Position numbers and translations under genes: made by a program | Shown here: in pieces, positions 21,514 through 55,378 of the stretch | How positions within the stretch are numbered: the stretch's first letter is position 1 | How the letters are laid out: every line of letters begins with the position of its first letter | Notes under the pieces: generated by a model | Seen by the model: the letters and a program-made list of their open reading frames with translations, nothing else | Databases searched by the model: none | Told to the model about the DNA's origin: nothing | NCBI GenBank assembly: GCA_919902675.1 | Contig: CAKKRH010000032.1 | Location: forward strand, 1,270 to 65,269 | Origin: Omnitrophica bacterium GWA2_41_15 | Lineage (GTDB): Bacteria > Omnitrophota > Gorgyraeia > Gygaellales > UBA12090 | Direction: 5' to 3' | DNA length: 64,000 nucleotides

Positions 21514-22575
21514 TTATCCACTCCGCAAGTATTTTCTTAAATCAAACTTCTTTATCGCCCTTAAAAAAGCGTCAACCACGTTGGGGTCAAATTGCGTTCC
21601 GGATTTATGTTTTATCTCTTTGAGGGCATCACTTATTCCCACCCTTTCCCGATAAGGCCTGCCGTAGACTATGGCCTCAAAGGCATCAGCCACGGCCATA
21701 ATCCTTGCCCCTAAAGGAATCTGCCCCTTTTTAAGCCTGGAAGGATATCCTGTGCCGTTAAATTTTTCATGATGATGCAGAATTATCGGTATAGCCGGCC
21801 TAATGGCTTCAAGGTGCCTGAGAATTTTTACCCCTCTTACCGGATGGCCTCTGATAATAGAAAGCTCTTTCTCGGTAAGCTGGCTGGATTTGGTGAGAAT
21901 CTCTATAGGTATATCCACTTTTCCGGCGTCGTGAAGCAGGCTGGCGAATTTCAGGCTCTGAATTCCTTTCTCATCCAGATGCATCTCCCTTCCGATAGCG
22001 CACACCAAACGGCTGAAATACGGGCTATGGGTATAGGCGCAGGGCACCCGGGTGTCAAATAAAGTTACCAGGGATTTAATGCTGCCCAGAATTATCTTCT
22101 GTTGCTCTTCATAAAGCTGCAAGTTGCGGATACCGATGACTGCCTGCTCGCCTAAAGTCATTAATATTTCCTGGTCATAGGAATCAAACGGCTTATTATC
22201 TTTTCTATTATCCAAAATAATCATTCCTATTAAATCGTCGGCTATCAAAGGAACGGCTAATTTAAAACCGCTGCGGCAGGCCTGAGACTTACGGATGACC
22301 CGCCTCTCCAGCGAATTAAATACCTTCGAGTTTTTACTGACTACGCATTTGGCGTTGTGGCGGATAGCGCATTTCAGGATAACCTTCTTGTTGGCGGGAT
22401 CAAGAATAACAATCGCGCAATTACGCGCGGATAATGTCTGGCAGGTAAGCCTGGCTAAACGCAAAATCAGATTTTTCAGATCATACGTCGAATTTATCAG
22501 GCGGTATACCGTATGAATCGTGGAAAGTGCCGCTTTATACTTTTTCGTAAGGATCAAATAATTTTTTATACTCAT
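21514..22575 (-). CDS. GAF domain-containing HD-GYP c-di-GMP phosphodiesterase
   Basis: 353 aa: HDAGKV...HHHEKFNGTGYP. Confidence 0.85.
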   Translation of the reverse strand: MSIKNYLILTKKYKAALSTIHTVYRLINSTYDLKNLILRLARLTCQTLSARNCAIVILDPANKKVILKCAIRHNAKCVVSKNSKVFNSLERRVIRKSQACRSGFKLAVPLIADDLIGMIILDNRKDNKPFDSYDQEILMTLGEQAVIGIRNLQLYEEQQKIILGSIKSLVTLFDTRVPCAYTHSPYFSRLVCAIGREMHLDEKGIQSLKFASLLHDAGKVDIPIEILTKSSQLTEKELSIIRGHPVRGVKILRHLEAIRPAIPIILHHHEKFNGTGYPSRLKKGQIPLGARIMAVADAFEAIVYGRPYRERVGISDALKEIKHKSGTQFDPNVVDAFLRAIKKFDLRKYLRSG

Positions 22576-23713
22576 CTAAAGCGTACCTATCGGTCATCCC
22601 GGCGATATAATCACAGATGACCCTTTTTTTATCTTCACCGTATTTTCCTCCGGAGGCGGATCCGCCAGCGTCAGAAATCTTATCGGCCTGCTCCCGCGGC
22701 AGCTGCCGCGGGTTATTCAGATATACCTCAAAAAGTTCCCGGATAAAACGTTTGGCTTTAATAGACATCCGCACCACCCGGTAATGATGATACAAACTAT
22801 CCGTCAAATAATCCTTGAGGGGAAGCCTTACGGATTCCATCTCTTTACTAAAGGAGACCAGCTTATACTCAAGGCCGCGGCAGTCCTCTACGGATTTTAC
22901 CCCGGCCTTCTTTATTCTGCTCTTAGTTTCCTCTATCAGGTCAGTTACCTGCGTATCGATCATCGCGCGGATTATCTGATATTTTCTTATCTGGGATTTT
23001 AACTTTCCATAGCGGTGCCTCACACCGCGCTCAGCCAGTTTCCACAGTTTTTTACTTCTTAACCCGGATTCTTCAAGCAGGCCGGAAGTCAAACCATCGT
23101 CAAGGTCATGGTTATTATACGCTATTTCATCGGCAATGTCTACCACCTGAGTTTCCAGGCTGGGCATCTTATAATCAAAATCTCCCCCTTCAGGGCGCAA
23201 GTCATGAAAAGAGGAATGCTTAACTATGCCCTCTCTCACCTCCCAGCTTAAATTTAACCCGGAGAAGTCGGGATATCTCTCTTCTAAAACATCCACTATT
23301 CTTAAGCCCTGCAGATTATGATTAAACCCTCCCGAATCCGCCATCAGATCATCCAATACTTCCTCCCCGGAATGGCCGAAAGGGGCATGGCCTAAGTCAT
23401 GAGCCAAGGCAATCGCCTCAACCAAATCGGTATTTAAGCGCAATATTGAAGCGATGGTTCTGGCTATCTGGGAAACTTCCAGGGTGTGGGTAAGCCTGGT
23501 GCGGTAATAATCGCCTTCATAGTTTACGAATACCTGGGTCTTGTATTCTAATCTGCGAAAGGCCGCGGAATGTATTATCCTATCCCTATCCCGCTGATAA
23601 CAGCCGCGGTAAGGATGCTCTTTTTCTTTATGCGTCCTCCCCCGGGATAAACAGCTTTTCATGGCATAGCCTGCCAGATACTTATTCTCAAATTCTTTCG
23701 CGCAGATTGTCAT
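22535..23713 (-). CDS. dgt: dGTP triphosphohydrolase-like HD protein
   Basis: 392 aa: RTRLTHTLEVSQIAR...AHDLGHAPFGH...ADEIAYNNHDLDDG. Confidence 0.85.
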   Translation of the reverse strand: MTICAKEFENKYLAGYAMKSCLSRGRTHKEKEHPYRGCYQRDRDRIIHSAAFRRLEYKTQVFVNYEGDYYRTRLTHTLEVSQIARTIASILRLNTDLVEAIALAHDLGHAPFGHSGEEVLDDLMADSGGFNHNLQGLRIVDVLEERYPDFSGLNLSWEVREGIVKHSSFHDLRPEGGDFDYKMPSLETQVVDIADEIAYNNHDLDDGLTSGLLEESGLRSKKLWKLAERGVRHRYGKLKSQIRKYQIIRAMIDTQVTDLIEETKSRIKKAGVKSVEDCRGLEYKLVSFSKEMESVRLPLKDYLTDSLYHHYRVVRMSIKAKRFIRELFEVYLNNPRQLPREQADKISDAGGSASGGKYGEDKKRVICDYIAGMTDRYALDEYKKLFDPYEKV

Positions 23714-27203: not shown

Positions 27204-27274
27204 AGCGGGTGAGCGGAATCGAACCGCCATAAACAGCTTGGGAAGCTGCCATTCTACCACTGAATTACACCCGC
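27204..27274 (-). tRNA. tRNA-Gly (anticodon CCC)
   Basis: The minus strand reads GCGGGTGTAATTCAGTGGTAGAATGGCAGCTTCCCAAGCTGTTTATGGCGGTTCGATTCCGCTCACCCGCT. It folds as a cloverleaf with 7-bp acceptor, D arm ATTC/GAAT, anticodon loop TTCCCAA and T loop TTCGATT. CCA is not encoded. Confidence 0.9.
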
Positions 27275-40148: not shown

Positions 40149-43100
40149 TCACAAGAGATAATTTACCAAGATCTTAATCTGTTCCGCATCGAATGGCTTA
40201 CCCACTACTGGTATGGCCTTCCTTTTAACATATTCCTTTAGCTTCTCAATTTCTTCCGCATATCCCGACATGATTAATATTGGCATATCTTTTGTCTGCG
40301 CGTTCTCCTTAAGCATACCAATTACTTCATAACCACTCATCGGCATTTTTATATCCAGCATTAACAAATCAGGAATAGCAGTTTTTATTTTTTCTAATGC
40401 TTCCTTTCCATCACCGGCTTCGCTAAAATTAGAATACCCGCTTGCCTGTAAAATTTTCCTTAAAACATTCCTCACTTCTGGCTCATCATCAACAATCATA
40501 ATGGACTTCTTTAATCTTGTTTCTCTTTCGCTAACACAAAAACCGTAGACCCGCTCCAATAAATCCTTACTATTACTTGCATCGCCAGGATAGGTAGCGT
40601 ATCCATATGAAAAACCCGTCCTAAGTTGTTCATCAATTTCAAAAACAGACACTTTTATAATCATCTTCAATCGTGTCATCATGTTGGATGCCTCTTGTTT
40701 GTTAACTTGTATAAAAACAATGATCTCATTTTCACTCCCTTTAATTACAAAATCCCTGCTTCGTATAACTTTTTCTAAAGCCGTCCCTATTGAAAGGAAA
40801 ACTTTTTGTACTCTATCTTTTCCGGACTCTTTCTCAACCTCTAAATAATTATCTAACCTGATAATAAATATTGAAAATTCCTTATTTTCTTTTTTAGCTT
40901 CTCTAATTCTCTCCTCTATCGTTTCGCGCAGGAACTCTTCTTTGTTATACTTCGGCAGGGTAAAGCTAAACTTGCTGCCCTTGCCAAGGCGGCTTTCCAC
41001 CCAAATCTTACCGTGATGCAGCTCAACCAGGGCTTTAGCTATAGAAAGGCCTAAACCCGTGCCTTTTTCGCCGAATCCGGGGACGCGGTCAAACTGCTGA
41101 AACTTGCTAAATACCTTAGGAAGGTCATCCCCTGAGATGCCCACACCAGTATCAGCTACGCCGCACTCTACTTCATTTTCTTTCTCTAAAACCGAAATCT
41201 CTATTGAGCCTTCTTTAGTGAATTTAAGAGCGTTGGCGATAAGGTTGGTCAAGACCTCGATTATCTTCTCCGTGTCAGCATAAATATACAGCTGTTTTTC
41301 AGGAAGGTTGACTTTCAATTCCAGCCCAGCATCTCTTGCGCGTTTAGAAAAAGAGGAGATAAGTCCACTAATTAAACTGTTAAGGTCAGCTGAGCCTCTT
41401 TTTAGCTCCACCTTTCCCGCCTCAATCTTGGAGATATCCAAGAGGCTGTTGATAATATTTGCCAATCTATCTATATTCTTCTTTGCGGTAGTAAGAATTT
41501 TTTCCTGCTTTTCATTTACCTTGCCGGCAAGTCCGTCTAAAACTAGAGCCAGGCCTTCTTTGGTAATAGAAAGCGGGGTCCTGAGTTCATGGGAGACTAT
41601 AGAGACAAATTCGGTCTTCATTCGATTCACTTCTTTCTCTTTGGTGATATCTCTAAGAATAATAACTATACCGATAGTTTCGTTCTTTGCGTTTCTCACC
41701 GGCGCTGTATCACAGTGTAAGGATACAGGCTCTCCCTGCACAGATACCGTTAGATCCTTAAAAACTAAACAGCTAATATCTGCACACTTTTTTAATACCT
41801 CCTCTAAACCAATGGCCTCGGCCTTTTCTTTCCATATTTTAGCCGTAACCTGCTCCTCGAACCTAAAACCCAACAACTGCCTGGCCCGCGGATTTATAAC
41901 CATCACCTCACCGCATTCATCCACCATCACCACGCCCTCAACCATGCTCTCTACCATACTCTCCATCTTTGACTTTTCAGCAGTGATCACTGCCCGCAGT
42001 CTTTCAATAGCATTAGAGGCCTGATTGGCAATGGTGCAGGTAAGCTCAATATCCTCTTCTGAAAAGGCATTCTCTTTACAGCTGGAGACATTAATCATCC
42101 CGACAGTTTTACCATGCGCTGTAAAAGGAACATTAAAGAAACTATGTAATTCCTTAAATTCCCTTTTTTCTTTATGGTTTTGGCTATCGGTAGCCAAACC
42201 ACGGCCTTCTGGCCTGGAGGTTACCTCTGTAGTGCTGGGAATAAGCATGGCGCTCAGGCGTTTCTTACGGATATTCTCTCCAGTTAAGATAGAGGTAGAG
42301 TCAATCAGGCCATCTTTTACCTCATCCGTAAATTTAGCACTTTCGGAATAGACGGGCTTTAGAGTAATGTTGGCGGTATGGGTATCAAATAAAAGCGAGG
42401 CGCAGATATCATAATTGATTGTCTTGAACAATGATTCCATGATAAACTTGAGTAACGTCTGATAATCCAAGGTATAAGAAATAGCATTGGAAATCTCATA
42501 TAAAACAGATAATTCCAAAGTCCTCTCTTTTACCTTCTTCTCGAGGTCTTTAGAATATGATTCAATCTCAGCCTTTGCTTTGGTAAGTTCGGCGGTTCGT
42601 TCTTCAATCATCCCTTCTAAACTTTTAGAATATTTTTCAATTTCTGCTTTTGCCCCTGCCAAATCCTCCATCATATTCAAGGTTGCTTCCTGGGTTTGGG
42701 CTAAATCTTTGGTGCGCTCCTTAGCCTTCTTCTCTAAAGTCTTGGCAAATTCCTCTAATTCTGCCTTAGACTTCTCTAAGTTAGCAATCAGCCCATTTAT
42801 CCGGCGCATATCGTGGGCTACGCCGACAATGCCGATTATTCGTCGTTCTTCAGGAGCTTTCAGCTTTCGGCTTTCAGCTTTCGGCTCTAGATCTTCTGCT
42901 GATAGCTGAGAGCTGATGGCTGATGGCTGACTCTCATACATTACTGAACCAGAGAAACTCATCGGTATCTTCCCGCCATTTTTAGTCACATAAATCAAAT
43001 CAAAATCGCGTACCGAACCTTCCTCAACCAGTTTCCTTAGGCGTGTTCCCTTAAGGAGAAGTTCTTCCTCAAAAATATTTTCCACCGGCTGACCGATCAG

Positions 43101-43589
43101 CTCTTCTTCGGTATATCCTAATAAATCTAAAGTGGCTTTATTTGCTGTCTTAATTACGCCTTCAGGGTCAACCACAATTAAGGTATCAATCATATTGGCG
43201 ATGATAGAGTCCACGTAGCCTTTATCCAGCAATTGCGCCCTCTGTCTTTTTAAATCCTGGAGCATTTGATTAAAGGCTTTAGCTAATTGGCCAATCTCAT
43301 CAAAGCTGGTGATTTTCACCTCTGCATCAAAATTGCCCTGCCGTACGGTAGAAATTGTTGAGAGGATTGATTTTAGCGGCTTATTTAAAAGAAAGTAAAA
43401 TACCACGATAATAAGGATGCTTAAACTTAAAGTATCTATGAACGCTTCCAGAATAGGATATTGCCTAATCGCCTCAAACTTAGCAAAGATAAACATAATT
43501 ATTAACTCAAATAACGCTACCATAGAAATGAGCTTAAAGGCAATACTAAATTTTAGGCGATGTTGTCTTTTCAAGCCGTTATCCTTCAT
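40149..43589 (-). CDS. Hybrid sensor histidine kinase (2TM-HAMP-PAS-coiled coil-GAF-PAS-HisKA-HATPase-degenerate GGDEF-REC)
   Basis: 1146 aa. H-box FVSIVSHELRTPL, G-box GTGLGLSIAK and a C-terminal REC (IMIVDDEP...LMLDIKMP). Between HATPase and REC lies a GGDEF-like fold with RSRD-FVIKG-SENEI in place of RxxD-x5-GGEEF. Confidence 0.85.
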   Translation of the reverse strand: MKDNGLKRQHRLKFSIAFKLISMVALFELIIMFIFAKFEAIRQYPILEAFIDTLSLSILIIVVFYFLLNKPLKSILSTISTVRQGNFDAEVKITSFDEIGQLAKAFNQMLQDLKRQRAQLLDKGYVDSIIANMIDTLIVVDPEGVIKTANKATLDLLGYTEEELIGQPVENIFEEELLLKGTRLRKLVEEGSVRDFDLIYVTKNGGKIPMSFSGSVMYESQPSAISSQLSAEDLEPKAESRKLKAPEERRIIGIVGVAHDMRRINGLIANLEKSKAELEEFAKTLEKKAKERTKDLAQTQEATLNMMEDLAGAKAEIEKYSKSLEGMIEERTAELTKAKAEIESYSKDLEKKVKERTLELSVLYEISNAISYTLDYQTLLKFIMESLFKTINYDICASLLFDTHTANITLKPVYSESAKFTDEVKDGLIDSTSILTGENIRKKRLSAMLIPSTTEVTSRPEGRGLATDSQNHKEKREFKELHSFFNVPFTAHGKTVGMINVSSCKENAFSEEDIELTCTIANQASNAIERLRAVITAEKSKMESMVESMVEGVVMVDECGEVMVINPRARQLLGFRFEEQVTAKIWKEKAEAIGLEEVLKKCADISCLVFKDLTVSVQGEPVSLHCDTAPVRNAKNETIGIVIILRDITKEKEVNRMKTEFVSIVSHELRTPLSITKEGLALVLDGLAGKVNEKQEKILTTAKKNIDRLANIINSLLDISKIEAGKVELKRGSADLNSLISGLISSFSKRARDAGLELKVNLPEKQLYIYADTEKIIEVLTNLIANALKFTKEGSIEISVLEKENEVECGVADTGVGISGDDLPKVFSKFQQFDRVPGFGEKGTGLGLSIAKALVELHHGKIWVESRLGKGSKFSFTLPKYNKEEFLRETIEERIREAKKENKEFSIFIIRLDNYLEVEKESGKDRVQKVFLSIGTALEKVIRSRDFVIKGSENEIIVFIQVNKQEASNMMTRLKMIIKVSVFEIDEQLRTGFSYGYATYPGDASNSKDLLERVYGFCVSERETRLKKSIMIVDDEPEVRNVLRKILQASGYSNFSEAGDGKEALEKIKTAIPDLLMLDIKMPMSGYEVIGMLKENAQTKDMPILIMSGYAEEIEKLKEYVKRKAIPVVGKPFDAEQIKILVNYLL
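42192..42216. repeat. 25-nt element inside the kinase CDS, identical to one in cheW
   Basis: agccaaaccacggccttctggcctg is identical to 50477-50501. On the coding strand it gives RPEGRGLA. A flanking tggYtttggct inverted partner is present in both copies. Confidence 0.9.
42854..42931. repeat. In-frame heptamer inverted array (CAGCTTT/CGGCTTT versus GCTGATA/GCTGATG) inside the kinase CDS
   Basis: Five units lie at 42854-42888 and five complementary-type units at 42898-42931. It encodes QPSAISSQLSAEDLEPKAESRKLKAPEE. The word family is the same as the 1527-1575 intergenic hairpin. Confidence 0.8.
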
Positions 43590-43738: not shown

Positions 43739-44374
43739 TTAACTTTTTTCTTTCAATTTTTGTTCCAGCTGACTAATCACTTCCTTCAGCTCCTTCATTT
43801 TAAGTTCTCTATCAACGGATAATTTATTGAATCGCTCAAGGTCAGCTGCTTTTTTCTCCAGCACTTGTTTGGCCTCGGTTATCTCTCGTGTGCGTTCTTC
43901 CACCTTTTTCTCCAGGCCTTCGTTAAGGACATTTAGCTCCTTATCCGCCTGCCTGAGTTCTTCGTTGGCTGCCTCAAGCTTTTCATTGGATGCGTTAATT
44001 TCCTTGGTTCGCGCCTGAATTTCTTGTTCTAAATCCGTACCCCAATTTTTAAGTTTTTCGGCCATCTTATTGAAATGGACAGCGATGAAACCAAACTCAT
44101 CCTTTCTTTCTTCGTTAGCTTTTACGGAGAAGTCTCTCTTTTCTACCGCGTTCATAACCTTAAGAAATTCATCCAGGGGCTTTTTTAACAACCTAAGGTA
44201 AATGATAGTAATAATCAGAATTAAAATAGAGATATCTATTATCGGCCCCAAAAAGGCGTATTTTTCTATTAAACTCCTTAGTGGGGCAAAATATTCGTAG
44301 ATAAGCATTATAAAAAGCTCTACAAGAGCAACTAAAAAGATAAGTTTCATTAAAATACTGTTACGGATTCTCAT
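43739..44374 (-). CDS. Membrane HAMP + coiled-coil protein without output domain
   Basis: 211 aa. It has 2 TM with a short loop, a HAMP (KKPLDEFLKVMNAVEKRDFS...FNKMAEKL), then coiled coil containing LEKKVEERTREI. The N-terminal module is paralogous to that of the kinase. Confidence 0.7.
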   Translation of the reverse strand: MRIRNSILMKLIFLVALVELFIMLIYEYFAPLRSLIEKYAFLGPIIDISILILIITIIYLRLLKKPLDEFLKVMNAVEKRDFSVKANEERKDEFGFIAVHFNKMAEKLKNWGTDLEQEIQARTKEINASNEKLEAANEELRQADKELNVLNEGLEKKVEERTREITEAKQVLEKKAADLERFNKLSVDRELKMKELKEVISQLEQKLKEKS

Positions 44375-44592: not shown

Positions 44593-45396
44593 CTACTTGC
44601 GCTCCTGGTCCCAGCGCTCAATGAGGATATCTGAAGTCAAGATGCGCATCAGATGCATAAAGGCATAGATATAGTCCCTGAAGGCAAAACTGAGCAGCCG
44701 AACTTCTACAGTCTTGGAGGCGCTGTCTACGGCTTCCAGGGAAATATGCCCCTCTGAATATTTTATCTGCTGTAAATAGGGATACTGTTGGCCAAACGTG
44801 TCTTTAAGCCGCGTAATAATGGCTTCCAGCACCGGCCCTCCAACCACCGGCTTGAGATTAGCTAAAAGTAGTTGATTAAGAATAGTTGAAACTAAGAGAA
44901 AAAAATCCTCACGGCTGGCATAGCCGCAAAGCTGGATTAAGTAATTGATGAGATTTAAATTTACCAACCTTTTTTTTACTGAAGCCTGACCAGGCCTGCT
45001 TAAGAGCTCTTTTAAACCCTTAAGAAATTGGTCTTTGTTCGCGCCTTCAGTTAAAACATTATCTACGCCGGCATTGATTGCCGAGGCGATTATCTTAGCC
45101 GCCTTTTGAGAGGTGATTAAAATAGCGGTTGTTTGCCGCGTTGGCGCGGATGTTTTTAGGGTACGCAGCAAGGCTAAAGCACTCTCAATAGCCGGATCTA
45201 CACACAAAGACGAATCTATGCCTTGGTGCAGGCTTAAGAGCAAACAATCAAACTTTTCTTTTAACAAAGCAGCTTCTAATTTTTTTAGCTCGCCTTCTAT
45301 CACAAAATCTAAGTTTAGCTCTTTAAGCCAGTTCTCAAGGGTCTTGGCGGCAGATGGCTCTGGTTCGAAAATAATTAGCTTTTTAATCTCCTCCAT
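44593..45396 (-). CDS. Pseudo-receiver domain protein with uncharacterized C-terminal domain
   Basis: 267 aa with an N-terminal CheY-like fold pattern (KKLIIFEPEP...FDCLLLSLHQ). Ser replaces the phospho-acceptor Asp position. The C-terminal roughly 140 aa has no motif I recognise. Confidence 0.5.
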   Translation of the reverse strand: MEEIKKLIIFEPEPSAAKTLENWLKELNLDFVIEGELKKLEAALLKEKFDCLLLSLHQGIDSSLCVDPAIESALALLRTLKTSAPTRQTTAILITSQKAAKIIASAINAGVDNVLTEGANKDQFLKGLKELLSRPGQASVKKRLVNLNLINYLIQLCGYASREDFFLLVSTILNQLLLANLKPVVGGPVLEAIITRLKDTFGQQYPYLQQIKYSEGHISLEAVDSASKTVEVRLLSFAFRDYIYAFMHLMRILTSDILIERWDQERK

Positions 45397-45466: not shown

Positions 45467-45946
45467 TTAAAAGCTTATTTTCACCGTGACAATACCGGTA
45501 GCTACCGAGAATTCCACAGACCTGCCTACTGAACCGCCAATAGATTCCCCGATTAGTTTTATGCCTTCGTGTTTTAACTTCTTTTTAGCGCTTAAAACAT
45601 TTTCCTTACCGATATCTGAGTTAGAAAGGCCAAACATATTTGCCCCGCCCACCAGCTTGGCCTCTAAATCTTTTCTGTCAGCGCCAAGCGCCTGTATCTT
45701 TTCTAAGGCTGAATCTACGGCGGTGTCCACGTATTTGGCATCTGGCTGCCTGAGGGAAGCCGAAGGGTCGTGCGTTACAGACAAAGGCAACATCGCATGG
45801 ATCATTCCGCCAATTTTAAGTTTAGGCTCATATAGGGTAATCATAAGACAGGAGCCCACTGCACGGGAGTAAAGGTTACCCTCTTCTTTACTTACCACTA
45901 ATTCTCCCATTGGCACTTCAATTTCCATTATTTGCTCACAAGGCAT
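45467..45946 (-). CDS. cheD: Chemoreceptor glutamine deamidase CheD
   Basis: 159 aa: ...LYSRAVGSCLMITLYEPKLKIGGMIHAMLP... Confidence 0.85.
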   Translation of the reverse strand: MPCEQIMEIEVPMGELVVSKEEGNLYSRAVGSCLMITLYEPKLKIGGMIHAMLPLSVTHDPSASLRQPDAKYVDTAVDSALEKIQALGADRKDLEAKLVGGANMFGLSNSDIGKENVLSAKKKLKHEGIKLIGESIGGSVGRSVEFSVATGIVTVKISF

Positions 45947-46514
45947 TCAACAAGACCTTAACCTCTTCGGGCTTAAATATAAGCAGGAGATACCCTTTCA
46001 TACTCATGGCCTTGACCATTAGTTCAATTCTTACCACCAGCGCCTCAGCGCTATCCTTGGCAAAACCTGCGATGACCTCTTCTAATATCGCGCCAAACAT
46101 ACCGGAAGATAATTTAGGCATACCCTCGGTTATCTCTCCTTTAAGGCTGTTGGAGAGGACGGCTAAATAATTGCCTAAGAGGATATTCCCTACTTCTTTA
46201 AGTACCATTTCGTCAAAAGGAATTAATTTTTTGATTGTTCTTGGTTTTTTTTTCATCAGCAGATCACATAAATGAAATGAAGTTTCTTTAGGAAATAAGA
46301 AAAGGCTTGAACCTGTAACTCCTCCGGCAACGGGTAAAAAGACTCCTACTCCCAGCTCCTGAGAACCGATAAGGGGAGAAACCTTTCTGACATTGGTTAT
46401 TACGGGTTGAGAGAATACCACCCCTGTCTCCGCGCCGATGAGCTTAGACAAGGCGGCAGTGCAACGTTGACTGGCTGTTTCGTTAATCTTGTTTAATTTC
46501 TCCTCATTCGCCAT
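45936..46514 (-). CDS. cheC: CheY-P phosphatase CheC
   Basis: 192 aa with the CheC-type motif EVGNILLGNYLAVLSN. It is adjacent to cheD. Confidence 0.8.
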   Translation of the reverse strand: MANEEKLNKINETASQRCTAALSKLIGAETGVVFSQPVITNVRKVSPLIGSQELGVGVFLPVAGGVTGSSLFLFPKETSFHLCDLLMKKKPRTIKKLIPFDEMVLKEVGNILLGNYLAVLSNSLKGEITEGMPKLSSGMFGAILEEVIAGFAKDSAEALVVRIELMVKAMSMKGYLLLIFKPEEVKVLLNAL

Positions 46515-46538: not shown

Positions 46539-46615
46539 GATTACACAGATTTTTGAATAAGATTACACAGATACACTTTTAATCTGTGTAATCTGCTTTT
46601 ATAATCTGTGTAATC
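46539..46615. repeat. GATTACACAGAT box array (2 forward, 2 reverse), second locus
   Basis: gattacacagat at 46539-50 and 46561-72, atctgtgtaatc at 46582-93 and 46604-15. The last box overlaps the cheA stop. A single box also occurs at 45444-45455. Confidence 0.9.
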
Positions 46616-48242
46616 ATCGTATGTCTTTTTTTAACGCCAATTTCCTCTTAGAAAGTATGAGGTTAGCTGCATCTAAAATAAGCGCGACCTCGCCAGAGCC
46701 AAGAATAGTGCAGCCGGTAAAATATTTGCCCTCCTTGGCTAACCTTAACGGCTTATGCACAATCTCCTGGGTCTGGCCTAACTCGTCTACCGCCAGACCT
46801 AATCGGTCTTCATCCTTTCGGACAATGACGATAGGCTGTGAATTTTGGTCTAAGCGGGGCAGATTAAACAACTCATTTAAACGGGTGATAGGGATATCCT
46901 CGCCTTCAAAGACAATGGCCTCATAATTCAACATCCCCTTTATATCTTCTTTTTTTACATGAATTAACCTCTCCACATTGGCTAAAGAAATGGCGTATGC
47001 TTTAGGGCCTACCTTGACGAATAAGACCTTAAACACTGCCAGGGTTAAAGGTATCTCTAAGATAAATTTTGTGCCTTTTAAGGGAAGCGACTCTACTTTC
47101 ACTGAGCCGCCCAAAGATTCAATCCTTTGCTTGACGATATTCAGGCCAAAGCCTCTGCCTGAAATTTGGGTAACCTCTTTGGTAGTGCTCACTCCGGAAA
47201 AGAGCGCGTTAACCAATTCTTCCTGAGCTGGATGGCTGGAAATTAGCTTGAGCCTTGAGGCATACCTTTTTACTTCTTCCCAATCAATGCCTCTTCCATC
47301 ATCGCTAACCTCTATAACCGCAAATCCACGCGCTCTTTTAGCAGAGAGTTTTAAGGTGGCTTGAGAAGGTTTTTTCAGGCCCTCTCTTTCTTTGGGGATT
47401 TCTATGCCATGGTCAATGGCATTTCTGACTAAATGCACCAGGGGCTCAGCCAAGGCCTCCACAATTGAGCGGTCTAATTCTATGTCGCCGCCAACCATCT
47501 CTAAATTAACCTCTTTTTTCTCTTGCTTAGCTAAGTCTCTTACTAAGCGTGGAAAACGGTTAAAGACGAAATCTAAAGGCACGGTGCGCGACTGCATAAT
47601 ATTAAACTGCAGGTCAGAGACTAATCTGGTTAAGGTATCTACGAAACCGGAAAGCTCGGGGTTTTGCAAAGTTTCCTTAATCCGCTCTAATCCCAGTTTA
47701 TTAATCAACAGCTCTTCGGATAAGCGCATCAATAAATCCAGCCTTTCTACCTTAACCTCGATGCTCTTGATCTTCTCAAGAGAGGCAGGCTCTTCCAGGG
47801 ATCCCTCGGAAGCCGCGGTTTCGTCGTGCCTGCCTGCCGGCAAGGCAGGCGTCGTGCGTATTGCGTCGCACGTAGCCAGAGCCTGTAATTTTTTGACTAA
47901 ACCCGCGGTGTCCAGTTCTTCTTTATCCTTGGAAACTGCTTTTAGGCTTGCTTCTAAGGCATCAAAACATTCAAATAATAAATCGGCGCAAGCGCCAACC
48001 TTTAATTCCTTCTTTTTTGTCCTGACTAAGACATCCTCTATGGCATGGCATAGGGCAGAGGTCTTGAAATAACGCGCGATTCCGGATATGCTCTTGTAGG
48101 TATGGCAGGCGTGCAGCATAGGGCCAAACAGGATCAGATTACCCGGGGTCTTCTCTAATTTAATCAGAGAACTATTCAGGGTATTCAGGTATTGCCTTGC
48201 CTCTCTTAGGTAAGTGTCTTTGTATTTGTCTATAATCTGCAT
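46614..48242 (-). CDS. cheA: Chemotaxis histidine kinase CheA (no recognisable P2 domain)
   Basis: 542 aa. It has Hpt (ACHTYKSISG), dimerisation and HATPase domains (DHGIE...GRGFGLNIV) and a C-terminal CheW-like domain. The P1-P3 linker carries a palindromic low-complexity insert (47822-47872). Confidence 0.9.
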   Translation of the reverse strand: MQIIDKYKDTYLREARQYLNTLNSSLIKLEKTPGNLILFGPMLHACHTYKSISGIARYFKTSALCHAIEDVLVRTKKKELKVGACADLLFECFDALEASLKAVSKDKEELDTAGLVKKLQALATCDAIRTTPALPAGRHDETAASEGSLEEPASLEKIKSIEVKVERLDLLMRLSEELLINKLGLERIKETLQNPELSGFVDTLTRLVSDLQFNIMQSRTVPLDFVFNRFPRLVRDLAKQEKKEVNLEMVGGDIELDRSIVEALAEPLVHLVRNAIDHGIEIPKEREGLKKPSQATLKLSAKRARGFAVIEVSDDGRGIDWEEVKRYASRLKLISSHPAQEELVNALFSGVSTTKEVTQISGRGFGLNIVKQRIESLGGSVKVESLPLKGTKFILEIPLTLAVFKVLFVKVGPKAYAISLANVERLIHVKKEDIKGMLNYEAIVFEGEDIPITRLNELFNLPRLDQNSQPIVIVRKDEDRLGLAVDELGQTQEIVHKPLRLAKEGKYFTGCTILGSGEVALILDAANLILSKRKLALKKDIR

Positions 48243-48261: not shown

Positions 48262-49335
48262 CTACCTGCTCAACAGGCAGGCTTCTTCTAATATCGCCCT
48301 GGCTATCTCTTGCGCAGGAAGCACTTTATCCGCCAATCCCGCGTCAATCACGGCCTTGGGCATACCAAAGATTAACGCGGATTTATCCTGCGCGATGGTC
48401 CTGCCGCCTGCCTCTTTAATAGAACGCATACCTTCTAAGCCATCGTTGCCAATACCGCTTAAGATAATGCCGATAGAATTTTGCTGATAAATACGGCTTG
48501 CGGATTTCATCGCTATATCAATAGAGGGGCTTAAGGTATCGGGTGAAACCTCTTCTAAAGTAGTAAAATTATTCTCTCTGCTTTCTACTCTTTCTTCTCT
48601 GCTCTTTATTTTTAAATTAAAACCGCCGGGAGCAAGATATGCGGCTGGGGAGAAAATAGTTTCTCCGTCGCAAGCTACCCTGGTCTTAAGTGAGCAATTT
48701 TTGTTTAAATGCCCGGATAAACTTTCGCTAAAAAACCTGTTTGGCATATGTTGAGCTATCAAGATCGGAAGAGAAAAATCAGCAGGCAAAGAGGGCAAAA
48801 TCATTTCCAGTGTTTGCGGCCCGCCGGTAGAGGCGCCTATAACAATAATTTTATCTTCTGCTAATAACTTAGGTGAAGGATGAAACGGCTTAAGCCTAAA
48901 AGCTTTAAATCTTTTCAAATTAACCTTAGAGGCGGCTTTTACTTCTTGAGTAAGCCTTTCTTTTATCTTTTCTATATCTAAAGATAGCTCTCCTGATGGC
49001 TTAAGTACAAAACTTACTGCGCCCAGCTCCAGGCATTCTAAAGCAATACCTGCCTCTTCCTGGCTATAGGCAGAAAGTATCACTACCGGAGTGGGAAAAT
49101 CACGCATTATATGTTTTAAGGTAGTTAAGCCATCCCATCCCGGCATTGCCAAATCCAGGATTATGCAATCGGGTTCAACAGAAGGGATTTTTCTTAACGC
49201 CTCTTGGCCGCTGGAGGCTGTCCCTACTACCTTAATCTGGGGGTCTTTATTCAGGAAATCCGAGACTAAGCTGCGGATAAAGAGGGAATCATCTATGATC
49301 AGGACTTTTATGGGGAGAAGACCTGGGGTATTCAT
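48262..49335 (-). CDS. cheB: Chemotaxis methylesterase CheB
   Basis: 357 aa: REC (VLIIDDS...IILDLAMP) plus a methylesterase domain (GASTGGP...). Confidence 0.9.
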   Translation of the reverse strand: MNTPGLLPIKVLIIDDSLFIRSLVSDFLNKDPQIKVVGTASSGQEALRKIPSVEPDCIILDLAMPGWDGLTTLKHIMRDFPTPVVILSAYSQEEAGIALECLELGAVSFVLKPSGELSLDIEKIKERLTQEVKAASKVNLKRFKAFRLKPFHPSPKLLAEDKIIVIGASTGGPQTLEMILPSLPADFSLPILIAQHMPNRFFSESLSGHLNKNCSLKTRVACDGETIFSPAAYLAPGGFNLKIKSREERVESRENNFTTLEEVSPDTLSPSIDIAMKSASRIYQQNSIGIILSGIGNDGLEGMRSIKEAGGRTIAQDKSALIFGMPKAVIDAGLADKVLPAQEIARAILEEACLLSR

Positions 49336-49377: not shown

Positions 49378-49752
49378 TTACTCTCTCTTGATATACTTGT
49401 TTAGCACTTGTTCAATCTGCGCGTCATCGAAGGGTTTAACAATATAGTCCTCGACGCCTAATTCCTTACAGCGATTAATCATCGCATCATGCCCCACAGC
49501 AGTAATCATAATTATCTTGGCCTCGGGCACGGCATCCTTTATCCGCTTAAGGACATCCACTCCCTCATTTTCGCCTTCAGGCATAATGATATCTAAGAGC
49601 ACCAAATCCGGTATTGCCTTCTTAAATTGTTTAAGGGCGGTTGTGCCTGAATCCGCTTCGATTACTTGCGAGTCTGGGATAGTCTTTTCCACAATATTTT
49701 TAAGCACCATGCGAATAAATGGCGAATCGTCCACAATGAGAATCTTTTTCAT
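49378..49752 (-). CDS. cheY: Chemotaxis response regulator CheY
   Basis: 124 aa: MKKILIVDDSPFIR...VLLDIIMP...K. Confidence 0.88.
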   Translation of the reverse strand: MKKILIVDDSPFIRMVLKNIVEKTIPDSQVIEADSGTTALKQFKKAIPDLVLLDIIMPEGENEGVDVLKRIKDAVPEAKIIMITAVGHDAMINRCKELGVEDYIVKPFDDAQIEQVLNKYIKRE

Positions 49753-49804: not shown

Positions 49805-50554
49805 TCATTTGCGCCTCCCACTTTCTTTTGCTTTTGCCGGCTTACTTTGCGTTTTTTGGCTTTGGCTATGGATGCGGCTATTTGGTTGCCCACCATCGCC
49901 CTCTGGCTTATGGCTGCGGCTATTGGAAGCCGCACCATCGCCCTCTGGCTTATCGGAGGCAAAACCACCGCCCTCTGGCTTATGAGCTAAGGTTATGCGC
50001 GCTAACTTGCTGAGATCCTCTTCAGAAAGCACCTTCTTTAAGTCCAACAGCATAATCAGGCGCTCATCCAAGGTGAGCACTCCGCTGATATAGGCGCGGT
50101 CAATTTTGGTAATCAGATGGGGCGTGGCCTTTATCCCTGTGCGGGGAATCCTTAAGACCTCAGTAACCTCATCTACCAAAACGCCGTAGAGGTTCCCCTC
50201 CTGTCCGGTAATAACGATATGCTTACTTTCCACTGGCTTTTTTACCGGCAGAAAGAAACGCTCTTTGAGGTCAATGACAATAATGATTTCGCCCCTGATA
50301 TTAGTTACCCCTTTGATGAAATTAGGCGAATCCGGTATGGGTGTAACCGCTCCGACACGGACAATCTCTCGGACTTCATTAATATCTACGCCAAAGGACT
50401 CGTCTTCTAAACTAAAGACGACTAATTGGATGAGCTCTGCCTCCGGGGTGATGGGTTTGTGGCTTTGGCTAAAGGAAGCCAAACCACGGCCTTCTGGCCT
50501 GTGCCTTTCCTGAGCGGCTTGGATATTGCTGGTATCTTTAATTTCAGTCGGCAT
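49805..50554 (-). CDS. cheW: CheW coupling protein with repeat-derived N- and C-terminal extensions
   Basis: 249 aa with core LVVFSLEDESFGVDINEVREI...PNFIKGVTNIRGEII. The N-terminal extension contains HRPEGRGLASFSQSHKP. The C-terminal tail has HKPEGGG/DKPEGDG/HKPEGDG repeats. Confidence 0.85.
   Translation of the reverse strand: MPTEIKDTSNIQAAQERHRPEGRGLASFSQSHKPITPEAELIQLVVFSLEDESFGVDINEVREIVRVGAVTPIPDSPNFIKGVTNIRGEIIIVIDLKERFFLPVKKPVESKHIVITGQEGNLYGVLVDEVTEVLRIPRTGIKATPHLITKIDRAYISGVLTLDERLIMLLDLKKVLSEEDLSKLARITLAHKPEGGGFASDKPEGDGAASNSRSHKPEGDGGQPNSRIHSQSQKTQSKPAKAKESGRRK
50477..50501. repeat. 25-nt element inside cheW, identical to the one in the kinase gene
   Basis: agccaaaccacggccttctggcctg is identical to 42192-42216. 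Confidence 0.9.
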
Positions 50555-50555
50555 T

Positions 50556-53500
50556 TTATTTATCCTCCCCTTCCTCTTCCACTACCTCCTGAGCAGAAAC
50601 CTTAAACCTGCGCAAAGCGGTGCGCAATTGCTCGGCTAAGCCGGACAAGTTTTGCGCGGATGAGGTCATCTGCTGCATCGCTTGAGTCTGCTGTTGAATG
50701 GAAGTAGACATCTCGGATGAGCCTGTAGCTGCCTGCTCAGCAGTCAAAGCGATTTCCTCAATAGTCTTGGCTACCTGTTGCGCGCCTCCTGCCTGCGCGG
50801 TAGTGGCAGCGGAAACTTCCTGGGCTTTAGAAGTAATTTCCTGAGTGCCTACGCCAATCTGGCCTAAGATAGCCAGCGCCTGATTAACGATATCAATACT
50901 CTCGGAAACCTGCTGGGTTCCGGCAGTCATACCCGTAACCACCTCAGCGGTAGAATCAGTTATCGTGCTCACCATACCTTCAATTTGCACCGCGGCTTTT
51001 TTGGTCCCTTCAGCTAATTTTCTGATTTCATCAGCAACTACGGCAAAACCCCGGCCTGCCTCTCCGGCATGGGCGGCTTCAATAGCGGCGTTTAAGGCCA
51101 AAAGATTAGTCTGGTCAGCAATATCTTTGGTCGTACCGACGATTACCGCGATTTCCTTGGCGCGCTTATCTAAGTCTTTAACTGTAGTAGTATTGGCTTT
51201 AACAATATCATCTATGGTCTTCAATCTTCCGGCTGCCTGCTTGCCTGATTCCGTGCCTTTCTCTGCCAGTTTGGCTGCTTCCTGAGTAGCCTCAGCCGCT
51301 GCCTTGGAATTAGCCGCGCCTTGTTGTATAGACTTAGAAAGCTCAGCTACTACTTTGGTAGAGGTCTCTAATTTCTTAGACTGCTCCCTTGAGCCGGCAG
51401 CTATTTCTTGGGTGGTCTTGGCAACTTGGCCTAAGGCAGTATTTACCTGCCGGGAGGCATTAGATAATTGATTGGAAGAGCTAGCAACCTTGGTAGAGCT
51501 TTCCATAGCCAAGCGAATAGTTTTTCCTAAGTCATCAAAGGATTTGTTTAAGGCATCAGTCAAGGTCTTGATATCTCCTCTTGCCTCCAAGGCATATCTT
51601 TGTGAAATGTCTCCTTTGGAGAGGGCAAGGCTAAGCCGGATTACTTCCTGAACCGGTTTGGCGATAGAATCAATCAAGGTGTTCAAGGTGTCCACGATAT
51701 TTTTCCAACTGCCGCCAACGCCTTCCACTTTTGCCCGTTCGCTAAGCTTTCCTTCCACACCAGCTACCTGAGCCACTCGGGAAACTTCATTGGCTAAGCG
51801 GTTTAAATTATCCACCATGCTATTTAGTGTATCTTTTAACTGTAGAATCTCCCCTGCTGCTTCTACAGTTATCTTTTGAGTTAAGTCTCCCATAGCAATA
51901 GCTGTGCCAACCTTAGCAATGTTTCTCACCTGAGCAGTAAGGTTAGCCGCCATAGCATTGACCCTGTCAGTAAGGTCCTTCCATGTCCCGGCTACGCCCG
52001 GCACTGCTGCCTGTCCGCCGAGTTTTCCTTCCGTGCCTACTTCTTTGGCTACGCGGGTAACTTCTGCGGCAAAAGTATTTAATGAATCCACCATAGCATT
52101 GATCGTATTCTTAAGCTCTAAGATTTCACCCATTGCCTCTACGGTAATCTTCTGAGCCAGGTCCCCCTTGGCAACTGCGGTGGTTACTAAAGCAATGTTA
52201 CGCACCTGCGAGGTAAGGTTAGCCGCCATAGCATTAACCCTGTCAGTAAGGTCCTTCCATGTCCCGGCTACGCCCGGCACTGCTGCCTGTCCGCCGAGTT
52301 TTCCTTCCGTGCCTACTTCTTTGGCTACGCGGGTAACTTCTGCGGCAAAAGTATTTAGTGAATCCACCATTTTATTGATGGTATCTTTTAAGGCTAACAT
52401 CTCTCCCTTAACCTCTACAGTGATTTTTTGCGCCAGATCTCCGTTAGCAACTGCGGTAGTAACCTGAGCAATGTTACGCACCTGAGCAGTAAGATTTCCC
52501 GCCATAGCATTGACGTTATCCGTAAGGTCTTTCCATGTCCCGCCAACACCCGGCACTGCTGCCTGTCCGCCGAGTTTTCCTTCCGTGCCTACTTCCTTGG
52601 CCACGCGGGTAACTTCTGCGGCAAAAGTATTTAGTGAATCCACCATTTTATTGATGGTATCTTTTAAGGCTAACATCTCTCCCTTAACCTCTACAGTGAT
52701 TTTTTGCGCCAGATCTCCGTTAGCAACTGCGGTAGTAACCTGAGCAATGTTACGCACCTGAGCAGTAAGATTTCCCGCCATAGCATTGACGTTATCCGTA
52801 AGGTCTTTCCATGTCCCGCCAACACCCGGCACTGCTGCCTGTCCGCCGAGTTTTCCTTCCGTGCCTACTTCCTTGGCCACGCGGGTAACTTCTGCGGCAA
52901 AAGTATTTAGTGAATCCACCATTTTATTGATGGTATCTTTTAACTGTAGCACCTCTCCGGCAGCCTCAATGGTAATCTTTTGCGCCAGGTCTCCTTTGGC
53001 AACTGCGGTGGTTACTAGAGCAATGTTACGCACCTGCGAGGTAAGGTTAGCCGCCATAGCATTGACTCTATCGGTTAAATCTTTCCATAGACCGCCAACA
53101 CCCGGCACTGTTGCCTGGCCGCCTAACTTTCCATCCGTGCCTACTTCTTTGGCTACGCGGGTAACTTCTGCGCCAAAGGTGTTAAGTGAATCTACCATTT
53201 TATTAATCGTATTCTTCAACTCCAAGATTTCACCTTTCGCCTCAACCGTAATCTTCTGCGCCATATCTCCGTTAGCAACTGCGGTAGTAACCTGAGCGAT
53301 GTTACGCACCTGACTGGTTAAGTTTCCCGCCATAGCATTGACGTTATCCGTAAGGTCTTTCCATGTCCCGCCAACACCCGGCACTGCTGCCTGTCCGCCG
53401 AGTTTTCCTTCCGTGCCTACTTCCTTGGCCACGCGGGTAACTTCTGCGGCAAATAGGTTTAAACTATCCACCATCTTATTGATGGTCTCTTTTAACTGTA

Positions 53501-54524
53501 GCACCTCTCCGGCAGCCTCGATGGTAATCTTTTGCGCCAGGTCTCCCTTGGCAACTGCGGTAGTAACTAAAGCAATGTTGCGCACCTGTGCAGTAAGGTT
53601 AGCTGCCATAGCATTAACCCGGTCAGTAAGGTCCTTCCATGTCCCGGCTACGCCCGGCACTGCTGCCTGTCCGCCGAGTTTTCCTTCCGTGCCTACTTCC
53701 TTGGCCACGCGGGTAACCTCTGCGCCAAAAAGAGTAAGATTATCTACCATTTTATTGATTGTATTCTTTAGCTCCAGAATTTCACCTTTCGCCTCAACCG
53801 TAATCTTCTGCGCCAGATCTCCGTTAGCAACTGCGGTAGTAACCTGAGCGATGTTACGTACCTGACTGGTTAAGTTTGCTGCCATAGCATTAACGTTATC
53901 TGTAAGGTCCTTCCAAAGACCGGCTACTCTTTCTACCTTTGCCTGGCCGCCTAATTTTCCTTCTGTGCCTACCTCTTTGGCAATACGGGTAACTTCTGCG
54001 CCAAAAGTATTTAGTGAATCCACCATAGCATTAATGGTATTTTTAAGTTCAAGTATCTCGCCTCTTGCTTCCACGGTAATCTTCTGAGATAAATCTCCTT
54101 TGGCTACTGCAGTAGTAACCTGAGCGATATTACGCACCTGAGCGGTAAGGTTTGAAGCCATGGCATTGACGTTGTCAGTAAGATCCTTCCATGTCCCGGC
54201 CACACCCTGAACTGCTGCCTGGCCGCCGAGTTTACCTTCCGTGCCTACTTCTTTGGCCACGCGGGTAACCTCACCGCTAAAAGCTGTTAAGAGATCAACC
54301 ATACTGTTATAGGAATCCGCTAATTCGCCAAAGATATCTTCTCTTCCTGATTTTAACTTTTTAGTGAGATCGCCTTTTCTCACAGCTTCTAAGGCCTCTA
54401 ATAAATCTCTTAACTGTTTTTCTGACCCCTCGCTAAAGCCCTCTTCTCTTTCCAATGTTGCAACATCAGCCTCTGATTCGCCAAATAAAGCCTTCTTTGC
54501 CGCTTGTCTAATTGGCTTTGCCAT
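50556..54524 (-). CDS. Soluble methyl-accepting chemotaxis protein with poly-HAMP array
   Basis: 1322 aa with no hydrophobic TM segment. It has an N-terminal HAMP, ten tandem 92-aa units and a C-terminal MCP signalling domain ([24 protein letters not shown]). Confidence 0.9.
51525..54284. repeat. Ten tandem 276-bp (92-codon) units encoding paired HAMP domains
   Basis: The unit is [84 protein letters not shown]. Units 1-9 are highly similar and unit 10 is diverged. Confidence 0.9.
52327..52943. repeat. Perfect period-276 tandem duplication (2.2 units, 100% identity)
   Basis: 52327-52667 is identical to 52603-52943 base for base. The identical shadow ORFs 52428-52634 and 52704-52910 in the track confirm the 276-nt offset. 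Confidence 0.95.
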
Positions 54525-54559: not shown

Positions 54560-55378
54560 CTATCCGCTATTAACTATTTCCTTCGCAATCCTTCTATACG
54601 TCCTTCCTGCATCACTAAAAGGCGCATAATGAGAAATGGGCATTCCCTTCATCTGCGCTCTACAGATTTTTCGCGAAAACGGTATGGTGAAAATTTTAAC
54701 TTGCGGCATATTATTTTCGCTTAAGAATTCCTTTAATAGCTTTTTAATTTCCCATGCCTGGTATTTATCCAAGACTGATATGGAGGTTTCCCTTAAAAGC
54801 ATCATTAACAGATTGATTTCTACCCCCAGTTCTTTATTCAGCTCTATAACTAGGCTCTTCAGGGTCGCCAGCGTCTCATAGGCAAATATCCCTGAATCTA
54901 AGGGAATGATAATATTTTCTGAAGCAACAATTCCATTAATCATAAGCAGTGTTGAGCCCGGAGGAACATCTATCAACACATAATCGAAATGCCCCGTTAT
55001 GCCAGCTAAATTTTGTCTCAATAAAGCTGTATTATTGGCTTGACCAGCCATATGGGTTTCCGCGGCCAGAAGATCTAAAGAGGAAGGCGCAAGATATATC
55101 TTTGAGCTTGTTTCCAATATTGTTTCCTCTATATTCTTTTGCCCAAAGAGGACATCATAAATTGAGAAATCAACGGTTTTTCTATCAATGCCCAAACCAG
55201 AGGTGGCATTACCTTGTGGATCTAAATCTATAACCAATACTTTCTTATTCATCTTGGTAAACCACCCGGCGATGTTTAGACAAGATGTTGTTTTTCCTGT
55301 ACCTCCTTTATGGTGGACAAAGGCGATACTCATTGGTTTTTTCGTATCAGTTGATGTTTTTGTGAACATATTTTTCAC
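54560..55378 (-). CDS. ParA/MinD-family ATPase at the head of the che cluster (PpfA/ParC-like position)
   Basis: 272 aa with deviant Walker [11 protein letters not shown] and DLDPQGN. It lies immediately upstream of the soluble MCP. Confidence 0.8.

Follow-up and report, generated by a model that had tools for sequence, protein, structure and literature searches.

A kinase-type poly-HAMP array on a methyl-accepting chemoreceptor encoded in a che cluster of a Candidatus Omnitrophota genome

The receptor gene and its repeat array

The DNA considered here is a stretch of 64,000 nucleotides (contig CAKKRH010000032.1 of assembly GCA_919902675.1, positions 1,270 to 65,269; hereafter the window) from a groundwater metagenome-assembled genome (MAG) of a Candidatus Omnitrophota bacterium. 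On its reverse strand, in a che cluster, lies a gene for a protein of 1322 amino acids (aa) in which a long tandem array of HAMP domains precedes the signalling domain of a methyl-accepting chemotaxis protein (MCP). The parts of this open reading frame (ORF) are listed below in window positions.

50556-54524, reverse strand: poly-HAMP MCP receptor, an ORF call of 1322 aa with ten Pfam HAMP, ten HAMP_2 and one MCPsignal matches
54483-54524, reverse strand: basic N-terminal peptide by composition (14 aa; four K/R, no D/E), with an acidic linker after it
54273-54419, reverse strand: N-terminal capping canonical HAMP, aa 36-84, found with the canonical half of the unit hidden Markov model (HMM)
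51789-54272, reverse strand: di-HAMP units 1-9 of 92 aa each (a non-canonical and then a canonical HAMP), aa 85-912, from repeat analysis
51513-51788, reverse strand: divergent di-HAMP unit 10, aa 913-1004, an adaptor leading from the array to the signalling domain
50559-51512, reverse strand: methyl-accepting signalling domain, aa 1005-1322 (Pfam MCPsignal)

The MCPsignal match scores 126 bits against a cut-off of 34.6, and a Pfam scan of the receptor found no GAF, HisKA, HATPase or receiver domain; the original prediction, made from the DNA letters before any database search, had proposed that an MCP output stands here in place of a kinase, and the Pfam match bears this out. The tip of the signalling hairpin reads AGEAGRGF (aa 1153-1160), each arm spans about 21-22 heptads, which places the domain roughly in class 44H by arm length, and two weak methylation-like motifs are present. 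No membrane-spanning segment was evident by a crude measure, which is not a dedicated predictor: the most hydrophobic stretch of 20 residues contains 13 V/L/I/F/M/W/A and lies within a HAMP helix.

Tandem Repeats Finder reported a period of 276 nt with 8.6 copies (82% matches, score 2856) at 51909-54269, and in the protein the anchor EV[TS]R[VI]A occurs ten times at a spacing of exactly 92 residues (aa 85-1004, or nt 54272-51513). The span originally predicted for the repeats, 51525-54284, is 12 nt off from this one, and the 92-aa unit written out with it agrees with the consensus that we computed. Units 1-9 are 76-100% identical to one another and about 36% identical to unit 10; the latter has the same Trp as units 1-9 (see below) and a Pro in the first helix of its canonical HAMP. 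Among units 1-9, 1220 of the 1924 nucleotide differences fall at third codon positions, and 67% of the differing codons are synonymous. Because the differences are concentrated at third positions and mostly in synonymous codons, the repeats are old and under purifying selection, and they belong to a real protein rather than an artefact. Units 6 and 7 (52341-52892, reverse strand) form an exact 276-nt tandem duplicate with 100% DNA identity, the sole DNA-identical pair. A contig from Hainich groundwater (L051), apparently of the same organism as it has an identical CheY and the same gene order, encodes a receptor of 1230 aa with exactly one unit fewer, and two further contigs end inside the array.

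The units also alternate between the patterns DNVN...IAQV...ANGD and DRVN...IALV...AKGD, giving a partial super-repeat of 184 aa (552 nt) across 51789-54272, and a comparable two-unit alternation was seen in two Mortierellomycota arrays (P0145 and P0199). Two antisense ORFs of 169 aa (52786-53295 and 53338-53847, forward strand), which lie 552 nt apart, are by-products of the repeats and not genes.

Array type and relation to kinases of bacteria and fungi

Two families of poly-HAMP arrays, said to have evolved independently, were distinguished by Coles et al. (Protein Sci 2026; PMC13446029). In one family, HAMPs of types A and B are found upstream of methyl-accepting domains, and in the other, types C and D precede GAF-kinase-receiver modules, including those of the fungal group III kinases; an interface residue tells the arrays apart, Trp marking those of kinases and Phe those of chemoreceptors. 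The window receptor carries a kinase-type (C/D) array on a chemoreceptor output, an assignment that follows from its Trp, from an identity at the level of the Myxococcus xanthus kinase AskA and from a bimodal distribution of HMM scores. Each of the ten window units has Trp at position 28 (GTWKD, GLWKD or GSWKN), and this Trp is kept in every strong unit of every relative examined. The best match to a solved structure was with the poly-HAMP constructs of AskA (9TRK/9TRJ, E = 3.7e-120), and the window consensus is 77-87% identical to those of 18 bacterial poly-HAMP kinases (mean 82.6%; AskA 82%). When unit 10 together with the signalling domain was used to search 1.84 billion representative proteins and the best 150 matches were scored with the window-unit HMM, the scores split cleanly in two, with per-protein means of 65-166 bits for proteins with this array type and of 14-52 bits, mostly below 30, for the other long MCP arrays. 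These other arrays have a 91-aa period, the consensus ..AAVEGKLDTRADASKHNGDFRAIVQGVNDTLDAVIGPLNVAAEYVDRISKGDIPPKITDNYNGDFNEIKNNLN.. and Phe or Tyr at the Trp position, and they fit the chemoreceptor type as described by Coles et al.

Such A/B-type MCPs (P0381, P0383, P0384, P0398 and P0415) resemble the window receptor in being soluble and in having long alternating HAMP arrays directly before a methyl-accepting domain, but apart from their period and interface residue they also differ from the window array in identity (21-28%) and in score (14-28 bits per unit). An assignment of the window array to the A/B type was rejected on identity, bits per unit, period and Trp. The multi-HAMP receptor Aer2 is likewise a soluble HAMP-array MCP, and it matches the window receptor at just E = 0.011. 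The closest architecture upstream of the output is that of bacterial poly-HAMP hybrid kinases such as AskA and AskB of M. xanthus and Amb07 of S. cellulosum, which have the same 92-aa di-HAMP module, the interface Trp and a distinct first HAMP, and which, like the window receptor, are soluble and have no upstream input domain. This first HAMP is called 'D1' in kinase-type arrays (PMC13446029), and the capping HAMP of the receptor, 36% identical to the canonical HAMP of its own array, would correspond to it. In the hybrid kinases the array is followed by GAF-DHp-CA-receiver, whereas in the window receptor it leads through the divergent adaptor unit to a methyl-accepting hairpin, and the gene lies in a che operon. 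The available text of the 2026 classification assigns this array type to kinases and makes no mention of it on an MCP output (PMC13446029).

The original prediction further held that the repeat unit closely resembles the 92-aa repeat of fungal group III histidine kinases. To compare the two, fungal sequences were gathered with an OS-1/Nik1-type sequence serving as bait only, and the comparison is with the proteins so retrieved rather than with verified records of N. crassa OS-1 or C. albicans Nik1. The top matches of the kinase-receiver bait were 93-96% identical to it, and many were labelled NIK1 in JGI or "histidine kinase osmosensor" in NCBI records; the matches of the HAMP-region bait were dominated by long bacterial arrays and included just three Mucoromycota proteins (Gamsiella, Linnemannia and Rhizopus). 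The fungal sequences are fragments from prokaryote-style gene calls in which the first fungal units are missing. Their units recur every 92 aa and, in the same register, give a gap-free alignment with the window unit; the ungapped identity to the window consensus is 61-72% for the central units of NIK1-type Dikarya proteins, about 50% for their last unit, which precedes the kinase, and 68-76% for Mucoromycota units. In BLASTP, the array matched the fungal fragment P0326 at 62-64% identity over 418-441 aa (E = 2e-171), and the alignment extends into the fungal H-box, which confirms P0326 as a kinase. The motifs VAREVGTEG.LGGQA, WKDLT.NVN and VTTAVA.GDL are common to the NIK1-annotated fragments and the window units; a literature search for the repeat motif strings found no paper containing them.

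For a baseline, we compared two other HAMPs in the window with the canonical half of the array (22-32% identity) and chemoreceptor-type poly-HAMP arrays with the window unit (21-28%). The predicted resemblance is therefore upheld in period, register, motifs and identity, the fungal units reaching 61-76% rather than falling to the generic level of 22-32%, or to below about 30%. At 22-32% identity, the other HAMP proteins in the window were rejected as a source of the array. We conclude that the window array resembles the fungal Nik1/Os-1 arrays through common descent within one array family, a homology between bacterial and fungal poly-HAMP proteins that has already been published (PMC13446029, PMC7643160). 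The fungal group III kinases (Nik1, Os-1, TcsC, Bos1 and Drk1, the targets of fludioxonil, iprodione and ambruticin) have homologous 92-aa di-HAMP repeats in which the Trp is kept. They differ in having HisKA-HATPase-receiver after the array, feeding the HOG (high-osmolarity glycerol) pathway, whereas the window receptor has an MCP output in a bacterial che operon; they also have fewer units in the fragments seen and a diverged last unit (about 50%), and they are less like the window array than the bacterial kinases are.

The claim that went furthest was that this MCP-fused module bears on the evolutionary origin of the fungal sensor, and here the comparisons turned out otherwise. Measured as mean identity between consensus units, the window stands at 84% to orthologous MCPs, 82.6% to bacterial kinases, 74% to Mucoromycota and 70% to Dikarya, so that the bacterial kinases are closer to it than any fungi (70-74%). 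The fungi in turn lie nearer to the bacterial kinases than to the MCP family (69% and 67% for Dikarya, 76% and 72% for Mucoromycota). Eighteen columns separate the MCP consensus from the kinase consensus; at most of these the fungi have the kinase residue or neither (e.g., R7, T53, S62 and A91), and they share the MCP residue at just two or three (e.g., position 68). A neighbour-joining bootstrap of consensus units, which comprises 92 columns and resolves deep branching poorly, gave 20% for an MCP clade, 42% for the fungi with one kinase (P0001) and 4% for the MCPs with the fungi. Bacterial poly-HAMP kinases also share the downstream kinase-receiver architecture with the fungi. As far as these comparisons reach, the locus adds nothing specific on fungal origins. 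Because the nearest relatives of the array are bacterial kinases, the MCP family probably arose by a swap of output domains on a kinase-type array.

Two other accounts of the fungal likeness can be weighed against this evidence. Convergence, or a compositional bias of coiled coils, could in principle produce similar repeats, and in the view of Coles et al. the two poly-HAMP families did converge on similar features (PMC13446029); an essentially gapless alignment of more than 400 aa at 62-64% identity (E = 2e-171) with the same 92-aa period and register is far from what this would predict, as the truly independent family is just 21-28% identical and has a 91-aa period. We give this account virtually no credence, and judge it already refuted by the fungal alignments and the chemoreceptor-type baseline. 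A special and direct link between the MCP array and the fungal module, the array being either where the module came from or itself acquired from fungi, would accord with the high identity to fungal units (61-76%) and with one neighbour-joining topology that places the MCP cluster beside the fungal cluster. That grouping has the bootstrap of 4%, however, and the greater nearness of the fungi to bacterial kinases, their residues at the 18 diagnostic columns and the kinase-receiver output that they have in common with those kinases all speak against it, making such a link very unlikely.

Distribution of the receptor family and its neighbouring genes

In a first homologue search, most of the best 120 matches were kinases and six had an MCPsignal domain (P0003, P0014, P0016, P0018, P0024 and P0084). 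Five of the six have the divergent unit 10 and the same signalling domain as the window receptor, at 76-78% identity, and these are orthologues from other phyla. The sixth, P0003, is a JGI metagenome protein of 2120 aa that has a kinase-type array with 17 strong units on a different, unrelated-looking methyl-accepting domain, and basic tails at both ends. Because P0003 carries the array on a different signalling domain, the fusion of array and MCP has probably arisen more than once. The nearest signalling domains outside the receptor family were those of generic MCPs at about 36-39% identity, and a donor of the output domain was not identifiable among the matches.

A scan of one genome per prokaryotic species gave 47 loci, which were screened by ORF calling and HMMs together with three contigs from an exact look-up of proteins. 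C/D units were present in the matched gene at 43 of the 47 loci, and the order of the cluster is conserved as [ParA-like]-[poly-HAMP MCP]-CheW-CheY-[CheB]-CheA-CheC-[CheD], in which the bracketed Par and Che genes are not always present; the three contigs, found independently, have the same gene order. Within the orthologous group, identity over the query region ranges from 93% in an unclassified MAG (L004) to 57% in Bathyarchaeia loci. The carriers include Candidatus Scalindua, Pirellulales and other Planctomycetota, Omnitrophota, Elusimicrobia, Desulfobacteraceae, Syntrophales and Coxiellaceae, as well as three cultured Legionella species (L021-L023), ten Hymenobacter or Solirubrum isolates with ten units each and 38-39% identity in the signalling domain, and two Bathyarchaeia MAGs on contigs of 197 and 723 kb. 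Related arrays occur in ANME-1 and Halobacteria MAGs, where the gene is truncated by contig ends. Unit 10 and the signalling domain are 73-79% identical among Legionella, anammox Planctomycetota, Elusimicrobia and Omnitrophota, and 57% identical to those of Bathyarchaeia. In Bathyarchaeia (L030 and L031), the receptor is accompanied by CheW, CheB and CheA, and in the Halobacteria MAG (L044) and in ANME-1 (L046, L047 and L049) by a ParA-like gene. The archaeal occurrences point to transfer of the cassette between domains.

In the window, the receptor gene is flanked by the following genes.

54560-55378, reverse strand: ParA/MinD-family ATPase of 272 aa with the deviant Walker A motif KGGTGKT, directly upstream of the receptor gene (Pfam AAA_31, CbiA, ParA and MipZ)
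49805-50554, reverse strand: CheW (Pfam CheW; position conserved in orthologous loci)
49378-49752, reverse strand: CheY (Pfam Response_reg; position conserved)
48262-49335, reverse strand: CheB methylesterase (Pfam CheB_methylest and Response_reg)
46614-48242, reverse strand: CheA histidine kinase (Pfam Hpt, H-kinase_dim, HATPase_c and CheW)
45936-46514, reverse strand: CheC-like phosphatase (NCBIfam CheC_Thtogales E = 1.9e-20, below cut-off; position conserved)
45467-45946, reverse strand: CheD (Pfam CheD)

The C-terminal tail of CheW is of low complexity, with KPEG(G/D)G...S(R/Q)SH repeats at a 42-nt period (2.2 copies, 49863-49953), and a related HRPEGRG...SQSHKP segment is found at its N-terminus. 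CheD is followed by an ORF of 267 aa (44593-45396, reverse strand) that had no Pfam or NCBIfam match and has a weak homologue after CheD in locus L025. Between the che cluster and a hybrid sensor just downstream lies a HAMP-only protein of 211 aa (43739-44374); the hybrid sensor itself (1146 aa; 40149-43589, reverse strand) has the architecture HAMP-PAS-GAF-PAS-HisKA-HATPase with a GGDEF domain inserted before the receiver. Elsewhere in the window, a GAF-GGDEF cyclase and GAF-HD or HD-domain proteins are encoded at 14884-16053 (forward strand), 21514-22575 and 22535-23713 (both reverse strand), among housekeeping genes for RecA, AlaRS, HisD, LepA and aromatic amino-acid biosynthesis, and there is one tRNA at 27204-27274. 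In the NCBI records, three accessions lie between MEK6564813 (CheA) and MEK6564817 (ParA-like), which is enough for CheB, CheY and CheW, and the receptor seems to be without a record; an exact look-up of the receptor protein returned no match.

The ParA-like protein matched ParA/MinD-like NCBIfam models only below their cut-offs. An orthologue adjoins the receptor gene at 14 of the 50 loci screened (one Elusimicrobia contig is counted twice), including those of ANME-1 and Halobacteria MAGs. In bacteria and archaea alike, the adjoining ParA-like gene co-occurs with a motif in the N-terminal tail of the receptor, [KR]..RK.G[RK]KALF (RKxGRKALF for short): wherever the gene adjoins, the motif is present, as in the window and in L004, L005, L012, L015, L025 and L026, and in the archaeal loci L044, L046, L047 and L049. 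In Legionella, Coxiellaceae, L002 and L003, which are without the ParA-like gene, the receptor has other basic tails instead. L013 has the motif on a contig that breaks off directly upstream of the receptor, and in L006 the tail is a related one and no ParA-like gene turned up close to it. ParA/MinD ATPases are known to be activated by short N-terminal peptides of positive charge, with TlpT/PpfA as the chemoreceptor precedent (PMC7993993, PMC11407121): TlpT of R. sphaeroides is a cytoplasmic chemoreceptor with a positively charged N-terminal extension, encoded beside the ParA-like PpfA, which positions the cluster on the nucleoid. FrzCD of M. xanthus, a cytoplasmic chemoreceptor with two HAMPs, binds the nucleoid through a basic, DNA-binding tail of this kind (PMC5716589, PMC12077210). 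Neither TlpT nor FrzCD has a long kinase-type poly-HAMP array, and the likeness is one of description. Because the motif tracks the ParA-like gene and other tails are found where the gene is absent, we regard the N-terminal peptide as a candidate activator of the ParA-like ATPase and/or a candidate DNA-binding tail, and by analogy with these systems a coupling of the receptor to the ATPase seems a reasonable inference.

Proposed mechanism, alternatives and significance

A HAMP array is a parallel four-helix bundle whose canonical and non-canonical domains take opposite rotational states in alternation, an arrangement that can relay a conformational signal along the rod (PMC13446029). Engineered Aer2-Tar chimeras have shown that a poly-HAMP array fused to the kinase-control module of an MCP sets the output of CheA (PMC3570549). 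In the explanation that we favour, and that we consider probable as a whole, the protein is a soluble, dimeric, rod-shaped chemoreceptor of the Candidatus Omnitrophota bacterium with a kinase-type array. By analogy with the AskA structures and with gearbox and dynamic-bundle models, the alternating canonical and non-canonical HAMPs would pass a signal, in the form of rotating helices or altered bundle stability, along the rod to the hairpin. The array is joined to the methyl-accepting domain of about 44 heptads through the conserved, divergent unit 10, in the place taken by GAF-kinase-receiver in the kinases. The hairpin would then set the activity of the CheA-CheW complex encoded in the operon and hence the phosphorylation of CheY, with CheB and CheD tuning adaptation and CheC dephosphorylating CheY. 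As the receptor has no sensor domain ahead of its array, input is likely to enter at the array itself or at the N-terminal tail. The basic peptide, judging from TlpT and FrzCD, would probably link the cytoplasmic cluster to the adjoining ParA-like ATPase and might link it to the nucleoid as well, so that the cluster could be positioned and inherited.

It could be asked whether the union of a kinase-type array with an MCP domain is simply an assembly chimera, produced by repeat collapse or mis-joining in a MAG. The identity of units 6 and 7, the assemblies that break within the array or give one unit fewer, the split ORF of the nearest relative (L004) and the apparent absence of a receptor record from the NCBI annotation of the MAG would all be in keeping with such an error, but the ORF is continuous, its repeats carry a signature of purifying selection, and the junction between unit 10 and the signalling domain recurs together with the gene order in 43 loci of independent genomes, including cultured Legionella and Hymenobacter isolates, on contigs of 0.1-2.5 Mb. 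A chimera is accordingly most improbable. The output of the cluster is a more even question. With the same receptor architecture, it could be a non-motility chemosensory pathway that feeds, for example, neighbouring two-component or cyclic di-GMP (c-di-GMP) proteins. Motif and Pfam scans found no CheR in the 64-kb window, which is also without genes for flagella or pili; after the cluster come the HAMP-only protein and the GGDEF hybrid kinase, with other c-di-GMP enzymes nearby, and in other loci a histidine kinase and several receivers; and the system occurs in Hymenobacter and in Legionella clades whose Che genes are weakly associated with flagella. On the other side, CheY is a stand-alone single-domain protein, the pair of CheC and CheD is typical of flagellar systems, and the absences concern 64 kb of the genome. 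We consider a non-motility output a serious contender, at somewhat less than even chances. A bolder possibility, which we regard as rather unlikely, combines several ideas: the poly-HAMP MCP and its che cluster would form a horizontally moved sensing cassette, the rod would sense the same kind of cue as the fungal group III kinases, and the ParA-like ATPase would be recruited by RKxGRKALF. The fungal array has been implicated in osmotic and fungicide responses (PMC13452588), and the cues named in this speculative reading are osmotic or water-activity stress and small molecules such as ambruticin and phenylpyrroles.

Several points weigh against the explanation of a kinase-type rod that signals to CheA and is tied to ParA. 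Because the Hainich receptor is exactly one unit shorter, the number of units is 9 or 10 depending on the assembly, and so is uncertain or variable. The direction of the output-domain swap, from kinase to MCP, is taken from abundance and distribution rather than from a resolved tree. With no CheR in the window, adaptation by methylation is unproven, and the absence there of flagellar and pilus genes, like the occurrence in Hymenobacter and those Legionella clades, means that the output may not be motility. The coupling to ParA is suggested by gene adjacency and the motif, and several orthologues (those of Legionella and Coxiellaceae) have neither the motif nor the ParA-like gene. The function ascribed to the MCP family is itself read from sequence and analogy.

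The likeness to the fungal repeats is real, yet it restates a published homology and brings no new evidence on fungal origins. What is new is the kinase-type array on an MCP, the conserved cluster around it and the peptide linked to ParA, together a modest variant that has been present in public genomes and yet unremarked. The receptor is an exception to the 2026 classification, whose authors argue that the two array types behave differently (PMC13446029), and as a natural chimera it would indicate that a kinase-type array can drive a methyl-accepting/CheA output. Cultured Legionella or Hymenobacter, like chimeras made in E. coli, could give experimental access to an array about 70% identical to that of the fungicide target. 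If the more speculative reading of a moved cassette with a shared cue were true, the long-standing question of how that target's array senses could be addressed through a simple read-out of CheA activity. With its motif that follows the ParA-like gene, the family is, in addition, a candidate example of ParA-driven positioning of protein cargo shared by bacteria and archaea.

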